The translations under genes and the position numbers were made by a program. A model generated the notes under the pieces. That model did not search any database, was not told where the DNA came from, and was given only the letters and a program-made list of their open reading frames with translations. DNA of 61,876 nt, filler included. It is 4 parts of 4 records of this genome, joined end to end, with 100 filler letters (N's around TTAATTAATTAA, not from the genome) between each part and the next. Parts side by side here need not be neighbours in the genome. Positions count along the whole stretch, not along the records: positions 35,036 to 42,999 come from SRR20825019_3101; 3 more parts are not named here. The stretch is one strand, 5' to 3'. Every line of letters starts with the position of its first letter. Within the stretch, counting starts at the first letter, position 1. Shown here piece after piece: positions 35,036-42,999 of this stretch.

Positions 35036-36581
35036 AAGTTTAAGTCCTTTAGAAACCGAAGAAGGTCTGTTGGTTTCAACAGCAATTCGTGATATTACAC
35101 TACAGAAAAAAGCAGAAAATGAACTTGTTCGCAAAAACCAATTACTAAATTTTGCTGAAAGGATTACCTTAATGGGAAACTGGCAATGGAATTTACTAAC
35201 AAATAAAGTAATATGGTCTGCGAATCTCTATGATATATTTGGTCAAGAAGCTAATACCAATGTAGTTTTCGATACTTATTTTAATTATGTACATCCAGAC
35301 GATAAAGAACGCGTAAGCAATCACATTGAAAAATCCTTTGAAGCGAAAAGGTTTAATGATTTATTACACCGTATTCTATTAAAAGATGGTACAGTAAAAA
35401 CAATTCATCTTCTAGCAGAATTTATCACTAACCCCGCTGGAGAAGTAGTTGAACTTATTGGGGCATGCCAAGATGTGACTAAGCAAAAAATGGCAGAGAA
35501 TAAGTTTAGAGGCTTATTAGAGTCTGCTCCCGACGCAATGATTATTATGAACGAGAAATGGAAAATTCAACTTATTAATAAGCAAGCAGAAAAACTTTTT
35601 GGATACACCATAACTGAATTACTGGAAAAATCTATTGAGGAACTTATTCCATCACGATTTAGAAGCGACCAAACAATTCAGGAAGCAATTTTACATACTA
35701 CTTCTGAGGTTAGTGCCGTAGGATTTCAAGAGGATCTATTCGGAATAAATAAAGAAAATACTAAAATACCTATTCAGATTAGCTTAAGTCCGTTGGAGAC
35801 TGAAGAAGGTTTATTAATTTCTGTAGCTATTCGTGATATTACAATTCAGAAGGAGGCAGAAAATAGAATAATACAAGCTAAGGAAAGCCTAGAAGTTTTA
35901 ACGGAGCATTTAAAGGGGCAAAATAATAAGCTGGCTGAATTTGCGCATATCACTTCCCATAACTTGCGTGCTCCTGTAAGTAACTTAAATGCACTGCTTC
36001 ATCTATATGATATGGCAGATAATGAAGAAGAAAAGAAAATATTGTTTGAAAAATTCGAGTTAGTAATAAGTCATCTCACAACAACCCTAAACACATTAAT
36101 AGAAGCAATAAAGACTAGAAAAGAAATTGAAAAACCATTACAAACATTACACTTCGAAAAAATACTTACTAAGACAAAAGAGATTACTTCGGGTCAAATT
36201 ATAGAAACAAAAACAATTATAAGAAGCGATTTTTCAAAAGCACCTACAATTAAATATCATAAAACCTACCTGGAAAGTATTTTCCTTAACCTTATAACAA
36301 ACGCTATGAAATATAGCTCCCCAGATCGCAATCCTGATATATTTATTAAAACAGATTGTGTAGACGGTAAATTAATTCTTACATTTCAAGATAATGGATT
36401 GGGCATAGATTTAAAGAAACATGGCCATAAATTATTTGGACTTAATAAGACATTTCACCGTCATCCTGAAGCAAAAGGTGTTGGACTTTATCTAACTAAA
36501 ATACAGGTTGAGACTATGGGTGGTTCGATATTTGCTAGCAGTGAAGTGAACAAAGGTTCTATTTTTACTATAATCTTTTAA
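35036..36581 (+). CDS. multi-PAS sensor histidine kinase (5' truncated)
   Basis: PAS motifs VHPDD and LLESAPDA; H-box HITSHNLRAP; NLITNAMKY, DNGLG, GVGLY. Confidence 0.9.
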
Positions 36582-36591
36582 ATAAACGAGG

Positions 36592-37008
36592 ATGAAAAAT
36601 TTATATTCTATCTGTGTAATTGACGATGATAAAATCTATCAATATACTGTGTCTAAAATATTAAAGGCAAATGAGTTAGCTAAAGACATTCTTGTTTTTT
36701 CGGATGGAGAGGAGGCTTTAGAGTTTTTTATTGAAAACCAAGAAGTAAATGAAAACCTTCCTGATATAATCCTATTAGACATTAATATGCCTATAATGGA
36801 TGGGTTTCAATTTATGGAGGAGTACATAAAACTTAAACCAAGCATTGAAAAAGATATTGAGGTTTTTATGGTTTCATCTTCGGTAGATTCAAGTGATGTG
36901 GAACGCTCTAAAAGAATTACAGAGATCTCTGATTATATTGTAAAGCCGATAAAATCTGATGAAGTAATTTCAATAGTAACCACTTTTCACGATAAAAATT
37001 CAGATTAG
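36592..37008 (+). CDS. single-domain response regulator
   Basis: VIDDD, ILLDINMPIMDG, YIVKP. Confidence 0.92.
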   Translation: MKNLYSICVIDDDKIYQYTVSKILKANELAKDILVFSDGEEALEFFIENQEVNENLPDIILLDINMPIMDGFQFMEEYIKLKPSIEKDIEVFMVSSSVDSSDVERSKRITEISDYIVKPIKSDEVISIVTTFHDKNSD

Positions 37009-37202
37009 TTTTTCGCAGTTTCTTATGGCTAGAAGGCTAATTTATAAGTCTTTTAGTGGTATACACCCTTCTATTTATTAAAGGAATAAGCAATCCAATT
37101 TAAATATTGAGAGTTGTTTTTATTGTATTTAATATACTTCTTCAAATTTTAAAATGACTCCTTGGTATTTGGCATATAAACATGGATTGTTTTTTGATTC
37201 AC

Positions 37203-37210
37203 TATATTTG
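37203..37210 (+). promoter_or_regulatory. Bacteroidota -7 promoter element
   Basis: TATATTTG matches TAnnTTTG, 22 nt upstream of ATG 37233. Confidence 0.5.
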
Positions 37211-37232
37211 TTTTTTAAGAATACTTTAAGGA

Positions 37233-38969
37233 ATGAAACCACTACTTCTATTACTCTCCATACTCGTTACTACACTAAGTTATGCACAGGTATCATCAGC
37301 TTCTATATCAGTCACTCCAGGGGGTGGTATTAGTGACGGCTTGTATACTTCTGCAGTTCGGGTGAAGGTAGCCATTATGCAAAACCATCGTCCGTGTACT
37401 GGAAAAGTTAGTGCTATTACTAGCTATACGTATTCTGCTCACGCGTATCAATATAAGGGTGTTAAGTATTATTTCAAGAATGGGAATTTAGTTGATTCAA
37501 AAAACGAGCTTGTTGTAAATGGTGTAGGAGACTATAAAGATGGTGCCAAGTTTTCTATAGAGGTATTTATGAATACAGGAGTTGTTTTTGAAGTAACGGG
37601 TTATGCTAATGGTGGTTTACAACACCATATTATACAAGAGGATCTGCCAGAATTTGATGCGGATGGAAATAAGGCAAAATGTGTAGACCGTAATTCATTT
37701 ACGATGAGTGCTGCCAAAGCTGTGCAACCAATTCGATTAACGGATCGCGCTTTAGAGAGCAGAATTGATACCTACCTCAACAAGCAGGGACAAACTAGCA
37801 ACGAGAAACTAGGGATTGCTGTAAATACGGATGCTGGTAGCGATTGGAATGACTCAAGAAACCAATCCAATACAAGCCCGCAACAACCTGATTATACAAA
37901 AGCTTACGACGGACAAAAGTATGTACCTAAGTATGTAGTTAATGGCCAGACTGCGGAAAGCAATACCAATGCTCGGGCAGAACAAGTACGGCTACAACAA
38001 TCATTTGAGGCAAGGCAACAGCAGCAACTTGCATTTGAACAAAGCTTAGCTACACAAAATCAGCAGGCATTAGCAAAGTATGAGCAGGCATTTCAAGGAG
38101 ATCAGTTGTCTATTGGGCTTGCACAGAGCGCACAAGTACTTGGGTCTGCAATTGCGGGGTTTAATGATTATAATGCCATGGGTACAGCTGCGGCAAACCT
38201 ACTTGGTGGGCTTATAGCCGACGGTGAGCGTCGCCGTGAAGAACGTGCGCAGGAAGAAGCCCTTTGGCGGGAGCAAGAACGCATACGTGAAGAAAAGAGA
38301 GCCTATATTGCGACACTTGTTACCGCAAGAGAAGCAGCTTTAAGCGAACTACCAGCACCTAACTACCCAAATGCAACAACATCTAGCAGTTTAAAGACCG
38401 CTTATTTTTATAGCCTTTATTACAATACCGATAGTTTGCAGGTAGGTAGCCCTTCGATGCAAGTGACTGAGGTTTTTGCGATAAACCAATACTCGGATGC
38501 TACGTGGCCATTTATAACAAAGACACAAGAAAAGCTAGCTGAGTTTGCAACTAACGCGCCAACGCTTATTGGATACTTTGAGAGTTATGATGCTGCATAT
38601 AACTCTATGACCACCTTAACAACTTCACTAGCAGCAAATGCGGTTCAAATAACGTTTTTACCAGTTGCGGAGGAGTTTGACACCCCTGCTGCACTATCTG
38701 GTGGCACATCGGGGGCAACACCTCAACAAGATTTTTGGGGAAATACAGTTGCGAAGCCAAAAGCTTCAAAAGAACCAGAGACCCATTCAAAAAAGGAAGC
38801 GAGTAGCCAGTCCAATGATTTTTGGGGCGAGACTGTTCCTATAAAAAGCCAACAAGTGCCAAGCGAAACCAAACCTACGAAAGCAACTACCCCCGTACAG
38901 GATGCAACTACTTCAGATGATGATTTCTGGGGCACTTCCGTAGAGATAAAAGAGGACAAAACTGAGTAG
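37233..38969 (+). CDS. secreted hypothetical protein: coiled coils, Gly/Ala-rich hydrophobic segment, 3 DFWG motifs
   Basis: Signal peptide (..TLSYA-Q), Q-rich and E/R-rich helices, DFWG at 38730, 38817 and 38922. Confidence 0.85.
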   Translation: MKPLLLLLSILVTTLSYAQVSSASISVTPGGGISDGLYTSAVRVKVAIMQNHRPCTGKVSAITSYTYSAHAYQYKGVKYYFKNGNLVDSKNELVVNGVGDYKDGAKFSIEVFMNTGVVFEVTGYANGGLQHHIIQEDLPEFDADGNKAKCVDRNSFTMSAAKAVQPIRLTDRALESRIDTYLNKQGQTSNEKLGIAVNTDAGSDWNDSRNQSNTSPQQPDYTKAYDGQKYVPKYVVNGQTAESNTNARAEQVRLQQSFEARQQQQLAFEQSLATQNQQALAKYEQAFQGDQLSIGLAQSAQVLGSAIAGFNDYNAMGTAAANLLGGLIADGERRREERAQEEALWREQERIREEKRAYIATLVTAREAALSELPAPNYPNATTSSSLKTAYFYSLYYNTDSLQVGSPSMQVTEVFAINQYSDATWPFITKTQEKLAEFATNAPTLIGYFESYDAAYNSMTTLTTSLAANAVQITFLPVAEEFDTPAALSGGTSGATPQQDFWGNTVAKPKASKEPETHSKKEASSQSNDFWGETVPIKSQQVPSETKPTKATTPVQDATTSDDDFWGTSVEIKEDKTE

Positions 38970-39008
38970 CAAACCTCAACTAATTCTATTATTATTAAAA
39001 ATCATTTT

Positions 39009-40247
39009 ATGTTCCCCAAAGTTATTTTATTTCTATTCGTAAGTATTATTTCCCAAACACCAATTATTTCACAGAATGCATTAGCAAAGATTGAGTATGC
39101 CGAAGCTGAAACTGCTTTTCAGGAAGATAGGTATGCAGCTAGTTTAGAACATCTAGCCCTTGTAAAGGAAATGCTAGGCAGTACCAATGCCAAGGTGATG
39201 TATTTAGAGATATTGGGGCGGAATAAACTACTTGCGGAGCTAGCATTAGCTAGTTTGAAAGAAAAAATGCTAACTGTGGGTGATTTACCCGACACCCATA
39301 AAAACCGAAGCGACTATTTGATGCTTAAAAAACAAGTAGATGCCTTTGAAGACAAGGACCAAGCAGGGATTATACCGAGTATGGAGTATTTAATCAACCT
39401 ACAGGAATTGGTTGGCTTAACGGAGGTGTATATTGCTAGCTTTGAGACTACGGTTCCTTTAGAGAAGCTAAAGGCTGTTTATACTATTAGTAAGGAAAAG
39501 AAAGAACTTGCTATTGGTATAGACGCTGTAATGAAGGTAAAAGAGTTGATGAAACAAGATGCCAAAGAAGCGGCACTTACTATCGCAGAAAGTGTATGCG
39601 AAAGCGGAGGTACGTTGGGGTGTACCCTTTTAGCGCACCTTGATGCAGCGGTTACACAGAAGAAAAACTTAAAAGCGCTCGTGCAAAGTATTAAAGATGA
39701 GATGATATTAGTAGCAGGTCCTACCCCATTTTATATTGCGCCTTATGAATTATCTATAGAACAGTGGCATGCAGGTTTTGGGAAAGACTATAAAAACTTT
39801 TATAGCTCTGGTGGCGGCACTGCGCCTATAAAAAACGTTTCAGTTATTAATATTGCGGAGTTTATTAACGCATTAAACACACTTACAGGTTTGACATACC
39901 GATTACCTACTGAAACAGAATGGGATTATGCTGCAAGTGGCGGGGCTGCGAGTAAGGGATATAAGTATGCGGGGAGCGATGCCATTGATGAGGTAGCGCA
40001 TTACAAGAAAAATACAAGTAGTTACGGGTATCGCGGTACTTTAAAACCAAATGAACTAGGCTTATACGATATGTCTGGTAATGTTGCTGAGTTATGTAGT
40101 ACGGAGGGCAACAATACTGTACTTAAAGGAGGGAGTATTTTTTCCTCTAGGTCTGAATGTGAGCTTTCAAGAGAAGGTGAGCAACTTAAAAATGAAATAA
40201 ATCCTCAAGGTATGGGCGTTCGTCTTGTACTTGACGCTTCCTTATAA
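39009..40247 (+). CDS. secreted helical-domain + FGE-sulfatase/SUMF1-like domain protein (paralog 1)
   Basis: LAKIEY..STNAKVMYLEIL; YRLPTETEWDYAASGG, PNELGLYDMSGNV, KGGS, G.RLV. Confidence 0.85.
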   Translation: MFPKVILFLFVSIISQTPIISQNALAKIEYAEAETAFQEDRYAASLEHLALVKEMLGSTNAKVMYLEILGRNKLLAELALASLKEKMLTVGDLPDTHKNRSDYLMLKKQVDAFEDKDQAGIIPSMEYLINLQELVGLTEVYIASFETTVPLEKLKAVYTISKEKKELAIGIDAVMKVKELMKQDAKEAALTIAESVCESGGTLGCTLLAHLDAAVTQKKNLKALVQSIKDEMILVAGPTPFYIAPYELSIEQWHAGFGKDYKNFYSSGGGTAPIKNVSVINIAEFINALNTLTGLTYRLPTETEWDYAASGGAASKGYKYAGSDAIDEVAHYKKNTSSYGYRGTLKPNELGLYDMSGNVAELCSTEGNNTVLKGGSIFSSRSECELSREGEQLKNEINPQGMGVRLVLDASL

Positions 40248-40259
40248 AGATGTATTATT

Positions 40260-41009
40260 ATGAAAAGAATTATTATTTGCTTGGTGGTTATGATTGGCTT
40301 TGTAGGTATATGCGGGGCTCAAAATGAATTAGCAAAAATTGAATATGGAGAAGCGGAGACCGCTTTTCAGGAGCAGAAATACAAGAAAACGCTAGCGCAT
40401 CTTGAAACTGTGAAAACGCTTTTAGGAAGTACGAATGCAAAAGTTATGTATTTGGAAATTTTAAGCAGGCATCAGGTGTATCTATTCGACAAGGAGTTTA
40501 ATGCAAGCGCAGATTTTACTGAGACCTACGGTTTAGATCCAAAGACTTATTTAAAAAATACACTTGTTAACCTAAACTCATTAGTTGCAGACTACGATAC
40601 ATATAAGCATATCAAGAATATTGGGTTAGAGTCCAAAGAAAGTTATGAGAAAAAGATAGTGGAGGTAGAACAACGACTAAAAGATATAGACGCTAACGGC
40701 TATAAGGATGTAACAAAAGAGATTACACTTTTTGAAGCCAGCAAACTTATTGAAAATCTCTCTGACACTTATATTGCAAGCTTTGAAGAAAGTGTGCCTT
40801 TAGCAAAGTTGAAAGAAGTTTATATGATTAATAAGGAGCATAAAGCATTTAATGTAGGGATGGACGACTTTACGCTTGGGGGAAAACTATATGAAGCAAA
40901 AAAATATAAAGAAGCGCGACCTTATTATCAGAAAGCATGTGACGCTGGCAACACAATGGCATGCACTGCCTTAAAAAATCTAATAACTACTATAGAAAAT
41001 GGAGGCTAA
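40260..41009 (+). CDS. secreted helical-domain protein with Sel1-like repeat (paralog 2, no FGE domain)
   Basis: Same N-terminal motif; ends YYQKACDAGNTMAC. Confidence 0.85.
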   Translation: MKRIIICLVVMIGFVGICGAQNELAKIEYGEAETAFQEQKYKKTLAHLETVKTLLGSTNAKVMYLEILSRHQVYLFDKEFNASADFTETYGLDPKTYLKNTLVNLNSLVADYDTYKHIKNIGLESKESYEKKIVEVEQRLKDIDANGYKDVTKEITLFEASKLIENLSDTYIASFEESVPLAKLKEVYMINKEHKAFNVGMDDFTLGGKLYEAKKYKEARPYYQKACDAGNTMACTALKNLITTIENGG

Positions 41010-41159
41010 AGCACTTTTGTGCTAAGCCTTATCTACGTTAGGGTTCTTTGTGCCTATAAAGGAGCTATACAAAACCTAGGGATGATACCAACTAGCGTGC
41101 TTGAGGGAATTTAAAAACTAAACATACTAAAGCTACTACCTGATAAAATTAAAACTACC

Positions 41160-42533
41160 ATGAAATATACACTTACATTCCTTTTACTTATTGTTTTTAG
41201 TTTTGGTATGGAAGCTCAAAGCGGGCTTGCTAAAATAGAATACGCAGAGGCGGAAACGGATTTTCAAGCCGGGAATTATGCTGAGAGTTTAGCACATCTA
41301 GAAACCGTAAAGGAGTTATTGGGTAGCACGAATGCTAAGGTGATGTATTTAGAAATTTTGAACCGTAATGCTTTCACCTATAGGGAAGGCGAAAGACTGT
41401 TAAACCGTCTTACGTTTATACAGAAGAAAGTTAAAGATTCGGAAACGGGTTATCCTTCAAAGGCGCAGCTTGCCGAACTTGAGGAGCTTAAAAAACAAAC
41501 GGAGGCACATCTTGGCAGTGGTAAAAAATCATATCCTCTGAATGTGGAATACCTTGATAACTTAAAGGTATTGAATTTACTTACGGATACCTACTTAAAG
41601 ACCTTTGAGACTAAAGTTCCTTTAGATAAACTAACGGAAGTTTATAGTATTCATAAGAAAATAAAGGATAGTGCAATTAATATTGATGGTTTTATAACAG
41701 CCTACACCCTACTGGAAGTGGGTAAGACAGGAGAAGCGCTTCCTATTTTAAAACCAATTTGCAGTTTCGGAAATCCGCTAGCCTGTGAGCGCTATGAGGA
41801 GTTGAATTTCATTTTTGAGAAAAGCAAAAAACATGCTGCGGTTTTGAAAAAGCTACACAGTGAGATGGTATTTGTAAAAGGAGGAAGTTTTAGCATGGGA
41901 GGAGAAGTGCCCCGCACCAAGAAGGATTTGCAACCCCTACCTATACATACGGTAACTGTGGATGATTTTTATATTGGCATGTATGAGGTTACTAAAACAC
42001 AGTGGTTTGCTATAACAAAAAACATGACGACCGATAGTAGCAGTGATTTTGCACAGCGATCCGTATCTCGGGACTGGGCATTGGAGTTTATTGAAGAGCT
42101 TAACACCCTTACGGGTTTAAAATACAGATTACCAACAGAGGCAGAATGGGAATATGCCGCTAGAGGCGGAAATATGAGTAATGGTTATGACTATGCAGGG
42201 AGCAATACTATTGATGAGGTTGCGAATTATAAGAAGAATGCGGTGCCTGAAACTACTAAGGGAAGCTTAAAGCCAAATGAATTGGGCTTGTATGATCTAT
42301 CTGGAGGGCTATGGGAATGGTGTAGTGATGTTTATGATGCGGGTTATTATGCGAATAGTGAAACTACTAACCCACAGGGACCTGAAGCTTCCGGTTATGG
42401 TACTCATTATGTGCTACGCGGAGGTTCTAGTAGCAGTTCGGATTATGAATGCTTGGTTTATAATAGATATCATGCACAGTCTACTGTTCCTGCTCCTGTG
42501 TATGGTTTCCGTTTGGCGCTTGATGTTGATTAA
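41160..42533 (+). CDS. secreted helical-domain + FGE-sulfatase/SUMF1-like domain protein (paralog 3)
   Basis: Same N-terminal motif; MVFVKGGSFSMG, YEVT, RLPTEAEWEYAARGG, PNELGLYDLSG..WEW, RGGS, YGFRL. Confidence 0.88.
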   Translation: MKYTLTFLLLIVFSFGMEAQSGLAKIEYAEAETDFQAGNYAESLAHLETVKELLGSTNAKVMYLEILNRNAFTYREGERLLNRLTFIQKKVKDSETGYPSKAQLAELEELKKQTEAHLGSGKKSYPLNVEYLDNLKVLNLLTDTYLKTFETKVPLDKLTEVYSIHKKIKDSAINIDGFITAYTLLEVGKTGEALPILKPICSFGNPLACERYEELNFIFEKSKKHAAVLKKLHSEMVFVKGGSFSMGGEVPRTKKDLQPLPIHTVTVDDFYIGMYEVTKTQWFAITKNMTTDSSSDFAQRSVSRDWALEFIEELNTLTGLKYRLPTEAEWEYAARGGNMSNGYDYAGSNTIDEVANYKKNAVPETTKGSLKPNELGLYDLSGGLWEWCSDVYDAGYYANSETTNPQGPEASGYGTHYVLRGGSSSSSDYECLVYNRYHAQSTVPAPVYGFRLALDVD

Positions 42534-42623
42534 GCTACGGAGTACCACAGTTGTGGTTTGACATAGCGAAAAGGCGCATCTCCCCTACACTATTGTACTA
42601 TCTAAAATACACCTATTGGTATT

Positions 42624-42815
42624 ATGTTACTCTTTGCTACTATTCTGATTTTGTTTAGTGTTTACCTTTTTTTATCGATACGATTTGATTGGGAGCATGC
42701 TAAGAAGTCCTATCAGAAAGGGATTCCTTATTCTAGGGTTGATAGGTACTTGGGGTATGCTATTGCTGGCATTTGTTTTGTTTTAGCACTTTATATTTTC
42801 GTAAAGGCATTGTAG
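42624..42815 (+). CDS. small two-TM membrane protein
   Basis: 63 aa, two hydrophobic helices around a basic loop. Confidence 0.6.
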   Translation: MLLFATILILFSVYLFLSIRFDWEHAKKSYQKGIPYSRVDRYLGYAIAGICFVLALYIFVKAL

Positions 42816-42999
42816 TTTTTTAGTGCCGGACTGTGGTGGCAGGTTGTTGGCAATGGATTTACTAACTGCTTTAATACTATGCGTTCTTGTGGGTAGGGTT
42901 ATTTAAAGTGTAGGGAGCTGATTTACATTAGCGCTTGCGCGTATTGACTTTGTTCGTGGTAGAAGTCTTTTTGTGATTGCTTGTATTCTCTTTGGTATC

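Follow-up and report, generated by a model that had tools for sequence, protein, structure and literature searches.

As described in the respective publications, the tetratricopeptide repeat (TPR) domain of kinesin light chain binds tryptophan-acidic and tyrosine-acidic motifs of its cargo (PMC6214655), PorK serves as a docking hub through a fold of the formylglycine-generating enzyme (FGE) in which both catalytic cysteines are missing (PMC12421860), and FGE-type domains of conflict systems and diversity-generating retroelements are non-enzymatic binders (PMC7159879). These are among the closest described counterparts of a locus of five co-directional genes, termed g1–g5, that was analyzed here within a stretch of 61,876 nucleotides (nt) of DNA, referred to as the window. 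The locus codes for a large exported protein with repeated DFWG motifs in its tail (g1), three consecutive paralogs that share a block of 45 residues behind the signal peptide (g2–g4; the N-block), and a small protein (g5). A conserved two-part gene set is represented by g1 and the following genes, in which an exported helical protein with a motif-bearing tail precedes one to three exported N-block proteins.

Kinesin light chain resembles the arrangement proposed here, a docking of the N-block to the tail motifs, in that helical repeats read acidic-flanked tryptophan or tyrosine motifs located in disordered regions and often present in more than one copy. It is, however, eukaryotic and cytosolic and has no sequence relation to the locus; the likeness is one of mechanism only, and for the locus the binding itself is what we infer. 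Cohesin–dockerin cellulosomes are similar in having a scaffold with repeated docking sites and clustered genes that share a small docking module on varied domains, but they combine a beta-sandwich cohesin with a calcium-binding dockerin instead of a helical solenoid with a linear motif, are extracellular, carry enzymes as cargo, and have no Pfam match here. PorK/GldK and GldJ are Bacteroidota envelope proteins in which an FGE-like fold without the catalytic cysteines is described as a structural docking surface (PMC12421860), and in NCBIfam they came closest to g2 and g4; the latter two differ in lacking a lipoprotein cysteine, in showing no detected PorK insertions, and in their N-terminal scaffold. 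HcpB and HcpC of Helicobacter and other Sel1-like proteins are likewise secreted helical repeat proteins with paired cysteines bridging two repeat helices, but g2–g4 contain a single C-x7-C repeat, the N-block has no counterpart in the Hcp proteins, and the match is weak. The FGE fold (a C-type lectin fold) also occurs in the variable protein 2Y3C of Treponema denticola and in the FGS domains known from conflict systems, such domains being described as non-enzymatic binders (PMC7159879), whereas the proteins studied here are exported and lack NTPase or conflict-system partners. No reverse transcriptase or template repeat was evident on the 8-kb contig of the locus from its open reading frames (ORFs) and Pfam matches, no dedicated search having been made. 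NlpI and BamD, finally, are envelope helical-repeat proteins that gather several partners, but they are lipoproteins encoded by single genes and lack an N-block, swappable C-terminal domains, and a motif-bearing partner gene. We rate the gene pair as lying outside the known kinds of system, with the docking as a proposal. Consistent with the sequence-only reading, which had not recognized a described system, neither g1 nor the N-block was covered by a family in Pfam, NCBIfam, PADLOC, or PHROGs, and a keyword search of the literature returned no description, which may exist under other wording.

Composition and conservation of the gene set

The locus is situated on the third of the four contigs in the window (35036–42999; 7964 nt, G + C content 30–45%), which is bounded by runs of N. 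The five predicted genes were confirmed as plus-strand ORFs of 578 amino acids (aa; g1, 37233–38969), 412 aa (g2, 39009–40247), 249 aa (g3, 40260–41009), 457 aa (g4, 41160–42533), and 63 aa (g5, 42624–42815). The g1 product is the secreted "hub." In both g2 and g4 an N-block, a second conserved block, and a C-x7-C pair are combined with an FGE-like domain, and g3 consists of the scaffold only. Among the 421 ORFs of at least 40 aa in the window, the block profile matched g2–g4 only and the g1 profile matched g1 only.

A signal peptide (aa 1–19) opens the g1 protein and is followed by a variable beta-rich N-terminal domain extending to approximately aa 190, a conserved YDGQKY sequence (aa 225–230), long helices (aa 241–371), an alpha/beta C-terminal domain (aa 390–476), and a disordered, charged tail (aa 480–578). 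The only Pfam row was a weak one to DUF1223 (E 0.0062, below cut-off). Three DFWG motifs are located on the plus strand in the part coding for the tail, a feature that the sequence-only reading had not mentioned. The first (aa 500–503; 38730–38741) is invariant in alignments of four and of six sequences (D500, F501, W502, G503), the second (aa 529–532; 38817–38828) occurs in the three Aequorivita proteins but is missing in Pelobium, where the tail is shorter, and the third (aa 564–567; 38922–38933) is invariant in four of four orthologues together with the preceding aspartate (D563, D564, F565, W566, G567). In the orthologue alignments the linkers between the motifs diverge. The AlphaFold2 model of g1 had a mean predicted local distance difference test (pLDDT) score of 45, with averages of 59–82 for the blocks covering aa 391–480 and values below 50 for the tail. 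Since the motifs stay invariant within a diverging tail that AlphaFold2 leaves disordered, they show a pattern typical of short linear motifs. A wide VIA-align search with the model returned coiled-coil rows only (Z up to 7.5, spanning residues 238–337), the C-terminal domain being in effect outside this test, and the ESM Atlas contained no usable match.

Word-based protein searches found two proteins with g1 and four with g3, and a profile built from six g1 sequences again found at least two, from a candidate list limited to 7999 entries, probably owing to low-complexity words; the hits L002 and L003 were dropped, as their matches were short and confined to the Sel1-like end and to residues 4–49, respectively. 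Aequorivita sp. Q41 carries the same gene order (kinase, regulator, and proteins of 578, 412, 249, and 457 aa) with 93–94% protein identity. An Aequorivita metagenome-assembled genome (MAG) has a 581-aa g1 orthologue (61% identity) followed by a single 412-aa paralog in another neighborhood without the kinase pair, and in a Pelobium MAG a g1 relative of 508 aa, which shares core and tail but not the N-terminal domain, precedes a 370-aa paralog with FGE domain and a 212-aa scaffold-only paralog. The orthologues show 93%, 61%, and 36–44% identity to g1; the N-terminal domain is the variable part, and core and tail are conserved. All matches of the scaffold profile in these three genomes (three, one, and four segments in two genes, respectively) fell inside the locus. 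The proposed link of a constant scaffold bearing variable modules with the 578-aa protein is thus supported, since g1 relatives adjoin the paralogs in all three genomes, and the suggested check of co-occurrence and copy number gave three, one, and two paralogs, respectively. The label "flavobacterial" proved too narrow, as the pair is also found in the Pelobium MAG and in one genome (G578) of a phylum-wide draw. Upstream of the locus in the Aequorivita MAG (L004 280–5000), ORFs resembling a DNA adenine methyltransferase, ParB, and a PLD-type nuclease were recognized by eye, which suggests a variable, island-like neighborhood.

In a draw of 401 genomes from the Flavobacteriaceae, to which Q41 belongs, 12 were matched by the scaffold profile, and so were two of 401 genomes in the phylum draw, Q41 being included in both counts and G578 being the second genome of the latter. 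Five candidates per genome were scored in these draws, and at least one carrier (G131, found via g1) was missed. A g1 profile (A6) matched seven of the 401 family genomes. The conserved core was present in four of these (G001, G257, G209, and G131), in all of which the protein is followed by N-block genes; G063 and G348 gave weak A6 matches only. A 759-aa protein of G255 (L036 6722–9001) has a Pelobium-type g1 N-terminal domain without a D[FY]W tail and without an N-block neighbor, so that hub N-terminal domains appear to circulate on their own. Scans of metagenome contigs with the scaffold and g1 profiles yielded no confirmed relative. In a class-wide search with a profile that kept the FGE columns (A5), 97 of 401 genomes matched via generic FGE domains, which crowded out N-block genes among the five candidates per genome; among the A5 rows listed, the match begins at the N-terminus in no others than G003 and G990, and this search was used solely as the source of the G990 locus. 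The gene set is thus patchy in its distribution within a small group of Bacteroidota genomes.

Such a patchy occurrence (12 of 401 Flavobacteriaceae genomes), together with paralogs in tandem and a varying copy number, would also suit a secreted toxin g1, perhaps membrane-active via a Gly/Ala-rich amphipathic segment, that is accompanied by diversified immunity proteins g2–g4. We regard this explanation, which takes up the effector/poly-immunity function suggested by the sequence-only reading, as very improbable. The protein g1 matches no toxin, PADLOC, or polymorphic-toxin family, although an unrecognized toxin fold is conceivable in its N-terminal domain, which was modeled at low confidence, and its Gly/Ala-rich stretch (aa 292–331) is amphipathic and no clear membrane helix (Kyte–Doolittle maximum 1.26, under the usual transmembrane range). 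It is moreover the N-terminal domain of g1 that varies and the core and tail that are conserved, the paralogs are most conserved in the shared block, where immunity proteins would be required to differ, and the presence of MsrA, LRR, or long Sel1 arrays in relatives of the paralogs would be odd for immunity proteins.

The N-block scaffold and its swappable domains

As predicted, g2, g3, and g4 share two blocks separated by unrelated inserts. The N-block (aa 25–69 in g2, 24–68 in g3, and 23–67 in g4) is identical in 34–36 of 45 residues in pairwise comparisons, the inserts comprise 71, 102, and 77 aa, and the second block, Y[IL]..FE..VPL.KL..VY.I.K, covers aa 141–162, 171–192, and 145–166, respectively. 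A C-x7-C pair follows (aa 197–205 in g2, 227–235 in g3, and 201–209 in g4), which is invariant in the three paralogs and in nine of nine aligned relatives. N-block, second block, and the disulfide-type C-x7-C helix pair probably form a TPR/Sel1-like solenoid, and the remainder is swappable. Two relatives, P0002 and P0003, lack the variable insert, and the two conserved blocks are therefore nearly contiguous in them. Among the N-block codons for identical residues only 13–16 of 34–36 share the third base, so that the synonymous sites are close to saturation and the block is kept by purifying selection on the protein and not by recent gene conversion.

The Pfam Sel1 model (PF08238; gathering cut-off 30.7 bits) gave no row for g2–g4 at E up to 0.1, g3 matched only TPR_2 (15.6 bits versus a cut-off of 27), and PADLOC contained no family for g1–g5 at E up to 0.1. 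The AlphaFold2 model of g3, folded from an alignment of 55 sequences, shows 12 helices arranged as an all-helical solenoid (mean pLDDT 86.7; insert 57–80). Foldseek returned no row at E up to 0.001; its top rows were HcpC (E 0.03, TM-score ~0.17), designed TPRs, AspH-TPR, BamD, Hop, and 14-3-3. In a wide VIA-align search Z reached 9.8, compared with approximately 13 advised for helical repeats (BamD: Z 9.5, root mean square deviation 8.5 over 160 residues), and the ESM Atlas gave generic TPR clusters only. The fold thus weakly matches peptide-binding TPR and Sel1 proteins, with Z values in the range of any helical repeat.

FGE-like domains, as the sequence-only reading had indicated for two of the paralogs, were confirmed by the Pfam model FGE-sulfatase (PF03781; cut-off 23.3 bits) in g2 (~aa 267–407; E 4.5e-18, 66.3 bits) and g4 (~aa 232–455; E 2.3e-34, 119.7 bits), and g3 had none. 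Among solved structures, g4 matched human and bacterial FGEs at E ~1e-17, and its best single-domain score (60.0 bits) was to the non-catalytic 2Y3C. The active-site cysteines of human FGE are Cys336 and Cys341, the wild type having a cysteine at the first place. In the HMMER alignment with human FGE chains, "ggsssssdyeclvynry" of g4 is paired with "ggsymshrsycyryrca," so that only the second cysteine is matched and a serine occupies the first position, at which the aligned human chains themselves carry serine; g2 shows the same pattern of one cysteine by eye. As just one catalytic cysteine of the two is retained, the most likely role of the FGE-like domains in g2 and g4 is ligand binding and not formylglycine generation. 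The NCBIfam models GldK, PvdO, EgtB, and GldJ scored far under their cut-offs; PorK/GldK (TIGR03525) reached 81.9 bits with g4 and 47.7 bits with g2 against an equivalog cut-off of 350, the match being confined to the FGE-like part.

A search of 1.84 billion representative proteins with the scaffold profile (A3) yielded 1538 matches with E values of 0.001 or less, of which 185 reached 1e-10 and 20 reached 1e-30; plain Sel1 proteins recruited via the C-terminal repeat of the profile are among them, which biases the list toward Sel1 proteins. In 107 of the best 150 matches the N-block begins within the first 60 residues, at residue ~22–45 and typically at 22–30, right after the signal peptide. 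According to Pfam, the C-terminal parts of these 107 proteins contain Sel1 or TPR arrays (39 proteins), FGE-sulfatase (14), and, in one protein each, WG_beta_rep, Fib_succ_major, CHU_C (the distant member P0148), and Oxidored_molyb; the remaining 50 have no match. Members with long C-terminal arrays do pass the Pfam threshold for Sel1, and in the genomic loci the C-terminal parts also include LRR (G062 and G086), MORN, and MsrA (G359). The N-block thus defines a large family without annotation. Two fusions combine it with enzymes: in G359 (L030 10251–11108) it precedes the Pfam domain PMSR (MsrA; E 1.1e-53), and in the metagenome protein P0138 a molybdopterin oxidoreductase domain. Both domain types are used in methionine-sulfoxide repair, and the fusions could be an indication that proteins are repaired in the envelope. 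Three further N-block proteins (L037 4533–5696, L024 7949–9310, and L029 8014–9729) have Gly/Tyr-rich stretches followed by a terminal Phe or Trp; these ends resemble outer-membrane beta-barrels and might represent them, an idea for which Pfam offers no support.

The position of the N-block right after the signal peptide in 107 of the best 150 matches, its fusion to very different cargo, and the one member with a CHU_C type IX secretion domain would also fit a sorting tag, with g1 as the carrier that escorts or loads the tagged proteins to the outer membrane, the surface, or vesicles without forming a lasting complex. We consider such a function improbable: no transporter gene is conserved in the loci, and g1–g4 carry no type IX secretion signal. 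As the same recognition between hub and block would be needed, it represents a variant of the docking proposal.

Proposed docking at D[FY]W motifs and its alternatives

The gene directly upstream of the first N-block gene nearly always codes for a large exported protein with acidic-aromatic repeats in a Lys/Glu/Ser/Thr-rich stretch. Counting the strict motif [DENG][FY]W in 17 loci, the upstream ORF contained at least two motifs in 13 loci, one in two, and none in two, whereas the remaining ORFs of the same loci (178 with a length of 100 aa or more; 54,825 residues) contained 17 motifs in all, with only one ORF having two or more. The G990 locus fits as the 18th, giving 14 of 18 loci with at least two motifs upstream. 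The motif takes the form DFWG in g1 and its relatives, DDFWSG (three copies) in G059 and G118, DYW (three to four copies) in G068 and G078, DFWG plus DFWD in G359, DFWNG plus DLWNG in G130, GFW, DFW, SYW, and GFW in G578, LDYWGNP (two copies) in G131, and DFWGNP (two copies) in G990. Several of these proteins, namely the G059/G118 type and those of G359, G130, and G578, are not linked to g1 by BLAST, and they had no Pfam family other than WG repeats in two of them. The motif is the only feature common to otherwise unrelated upstream proteins. It is not a C-terminal signal, since one of the two DFWG motifs in the g1 relative of G209 (L026 6064–7980) lies in the middle of the protein at residue ~330 and the repeats of the G059/G118 type are internal as well.

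Based on these patterns we tentatively propose, at somewhat less than an even chance, that the N-block is a TPR-like docking module for the [DENG][FY]W motifs, which it would read on a hub of coiled-coil type located in the cell envelope. The constant module would bind the D[FY]W motifs of the hub in the way in which TPR domains bind short peptides, and the helical, probably oligomeric hub would thereby display several binding and enzyme domains together in the envelope, most likely in the periplasm. Its fusion to an enzyme such as MsrA suggests that the N-block localizes cargo rather than binds the final ligand. A broader form of the proposal, in which the helical module of ~45 residues behind the signal peptide and the D[FY]W motifs of a coiled-coil hub constitute a plug-in assembly code of Bacteroidota that docks lectin-fold, repeat, enzyme, and possibly membrane-barrel domains together, is conceivable but less likely than not. 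Such a code would follow the principle of cohesin and dockerin with a TPR-like reader and a linear motif, each from a family without annotation. As for the compartment, g1–g4 have Sec-type signal peptides that by eye end in AQ or SQ, those of g2 and g4 showing no cysteine or lipobox ahead of the N-block, and Pfam found no type IX secretion C-terminal sorting domain (Por_Secre_tail or CHU_C) in g1–g4. The surface location suggested by the sequence-only reading thus found no support; given Sec-type signal peptides and the lack of a lipobox and of a type IX secretion domain, the compartment is probably the periplasm.

A number of points weigh against the docking proposal. The fold matches of g3 are generic and below the level at which they would mean more than a common helical arrangement, and the g1 model, as stated above, is poor. 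The number of motifs disagrees with the number of N-block genes, with three motifs and one gene in the Aequorivita MAG, two and three in G209, and four and one in G578. Four of the 18 loci have no clear motif-bearing neighbor (none in G062 and G086, one strict match each in G352 and G130), many of the 18 are related, so that the upstream proteins may represent perhaps five to six independent lineages, and the motif class was set after the data had been seen. Genomic context covers these 18 loci, compared with 107 family representatives. The periplasmic location is deduced solely from signal peptides read by eye and from the lack of type IX or lipoprotein signals, and the binding between hub and module from sequence and context. 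A complex prediction for g3 (residues 22–249) with g1 (residues 380–578), run without alignments or controls, gave scores of 0.17 and 0.01 against a mark of 0.34 and is uninformative either way.

The same mismatch between motif and paralog numbers, and the fact that adjacency by itself is no proof of binding, would also suit genes that are co-regulated without any docking. The D[FY]W tail would then bind something else, such as peptidoglycan, lipid, or glycan, given that aromatic residues in charged repeats could generally suit the binding of glycan or membrane, the N-block would cap the solenoid, and both proteins would act in the same process, for example the handling of an envelope polymer. 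This explanation is unlikely in our view, because a mere cap needs neither the identity of 34–36 of 45 residues between paralogs with saturated synonymous sites nor the near-identity of the N-block across genomes, and it leaves aside that the motif is the sole feature shared by unrelated upstream proteins.

Genomic surroundings and implications of the gene pair

Upstream of g1 on the plus strand (35070–37008), Pfam identified a receiver-only response regulator and a PAS histidine kinase that is incomplete because the contig ends within it; toward the other side, gene content was read up to 42999 only. The pair is upstream of the locus in Q41 too and absent from the loci of the Aequorivita and Pelobium MAGs. 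Its link to the gene set is therefore loose, and kinase and regulator are neighbors outside the conserved unit. By eye, a very similar regulator and kinase were seen on the opposite strand at a distance of ~2.5 kb downstream from the G059 locus (L023 11247–15232, minus), and the remaining loci examined lack them. The TAnnTTTG element noted ahead of the genes was found again as TATATTTG at 37203–37210 on the plus strand, 22 nt before the ATG of g1, within a block of ~60 nt that is almost identical in Q41, the remaining spacer having diverged. As TAnnTTTG is the Bacteroidota-type promoter consensus, the element is a putative promoter of g1. A scan for sigma-70-type promoters and terminators gave no more sites than in shuffled sequences, and Rfam had no match anywhere in the window.

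In the 63-aa product of g5, two segments are hydrophobic (hydropathy 2.58 and 2.22 in windows of 19 residues), and Pfam, NCBIfam, PADLOC, and PHROGs gave no family match. Similarity to Q41 stops ~110 nt past the stop codon of g4, and no g5-like ORF is listed downstream in that genome. Contrary to the initial assignment as a small transmembrane member of the system, g5 is thus not conserved in Q41 and is probably outside the unit.

Two sequencing runs of uncertain type (tagged "RNA?", a guess) contained contigs of 157–306 nt matching stretches of g1 and g3 with 100% identity, a weak hint that these genes are transcribed, which is silent on operon structure. In one of the runs (X7), short contigs have loose ends inside g1 at 37812, 38441, and 38561 that resemble a template-switch cDNA adaptor, which hints at a cDNA run and at transcription of g1 in the sample concerned. 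In two other runs a contig of 7964 nt occurs that is identical to the one bearing the locus, which may derive from them. Within the window, contigs one and two (1–34935) have a G + C content of ~50% and few long ORFs, and contigs three and four (35036–61876) are densely coding and flavobacterium-like with ~30–45% G + C. The contigs are joined by paired runs of 44 N, and the assembly may hold more than one organism.

Even if the docking proposal were false, g1 and the N-block genes would remain a well-delimited conserved gene pair that comprises two new protein families. If it were true, a large and so far unannotated family of exported Bacteroidota proteins would gain a function, and a small helical module and a motif of four to six residues would constitute a simple recognition pair, which could explain how binding and repair domains are gathered together in the envelope and would be reusable as a tagging system. 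To our knowledge, TPR-type reading of tryptophan-acidic motifs is known so far from eukaryotic transport, and the gene set would then represent a bacterial, extracytoplasmic case.

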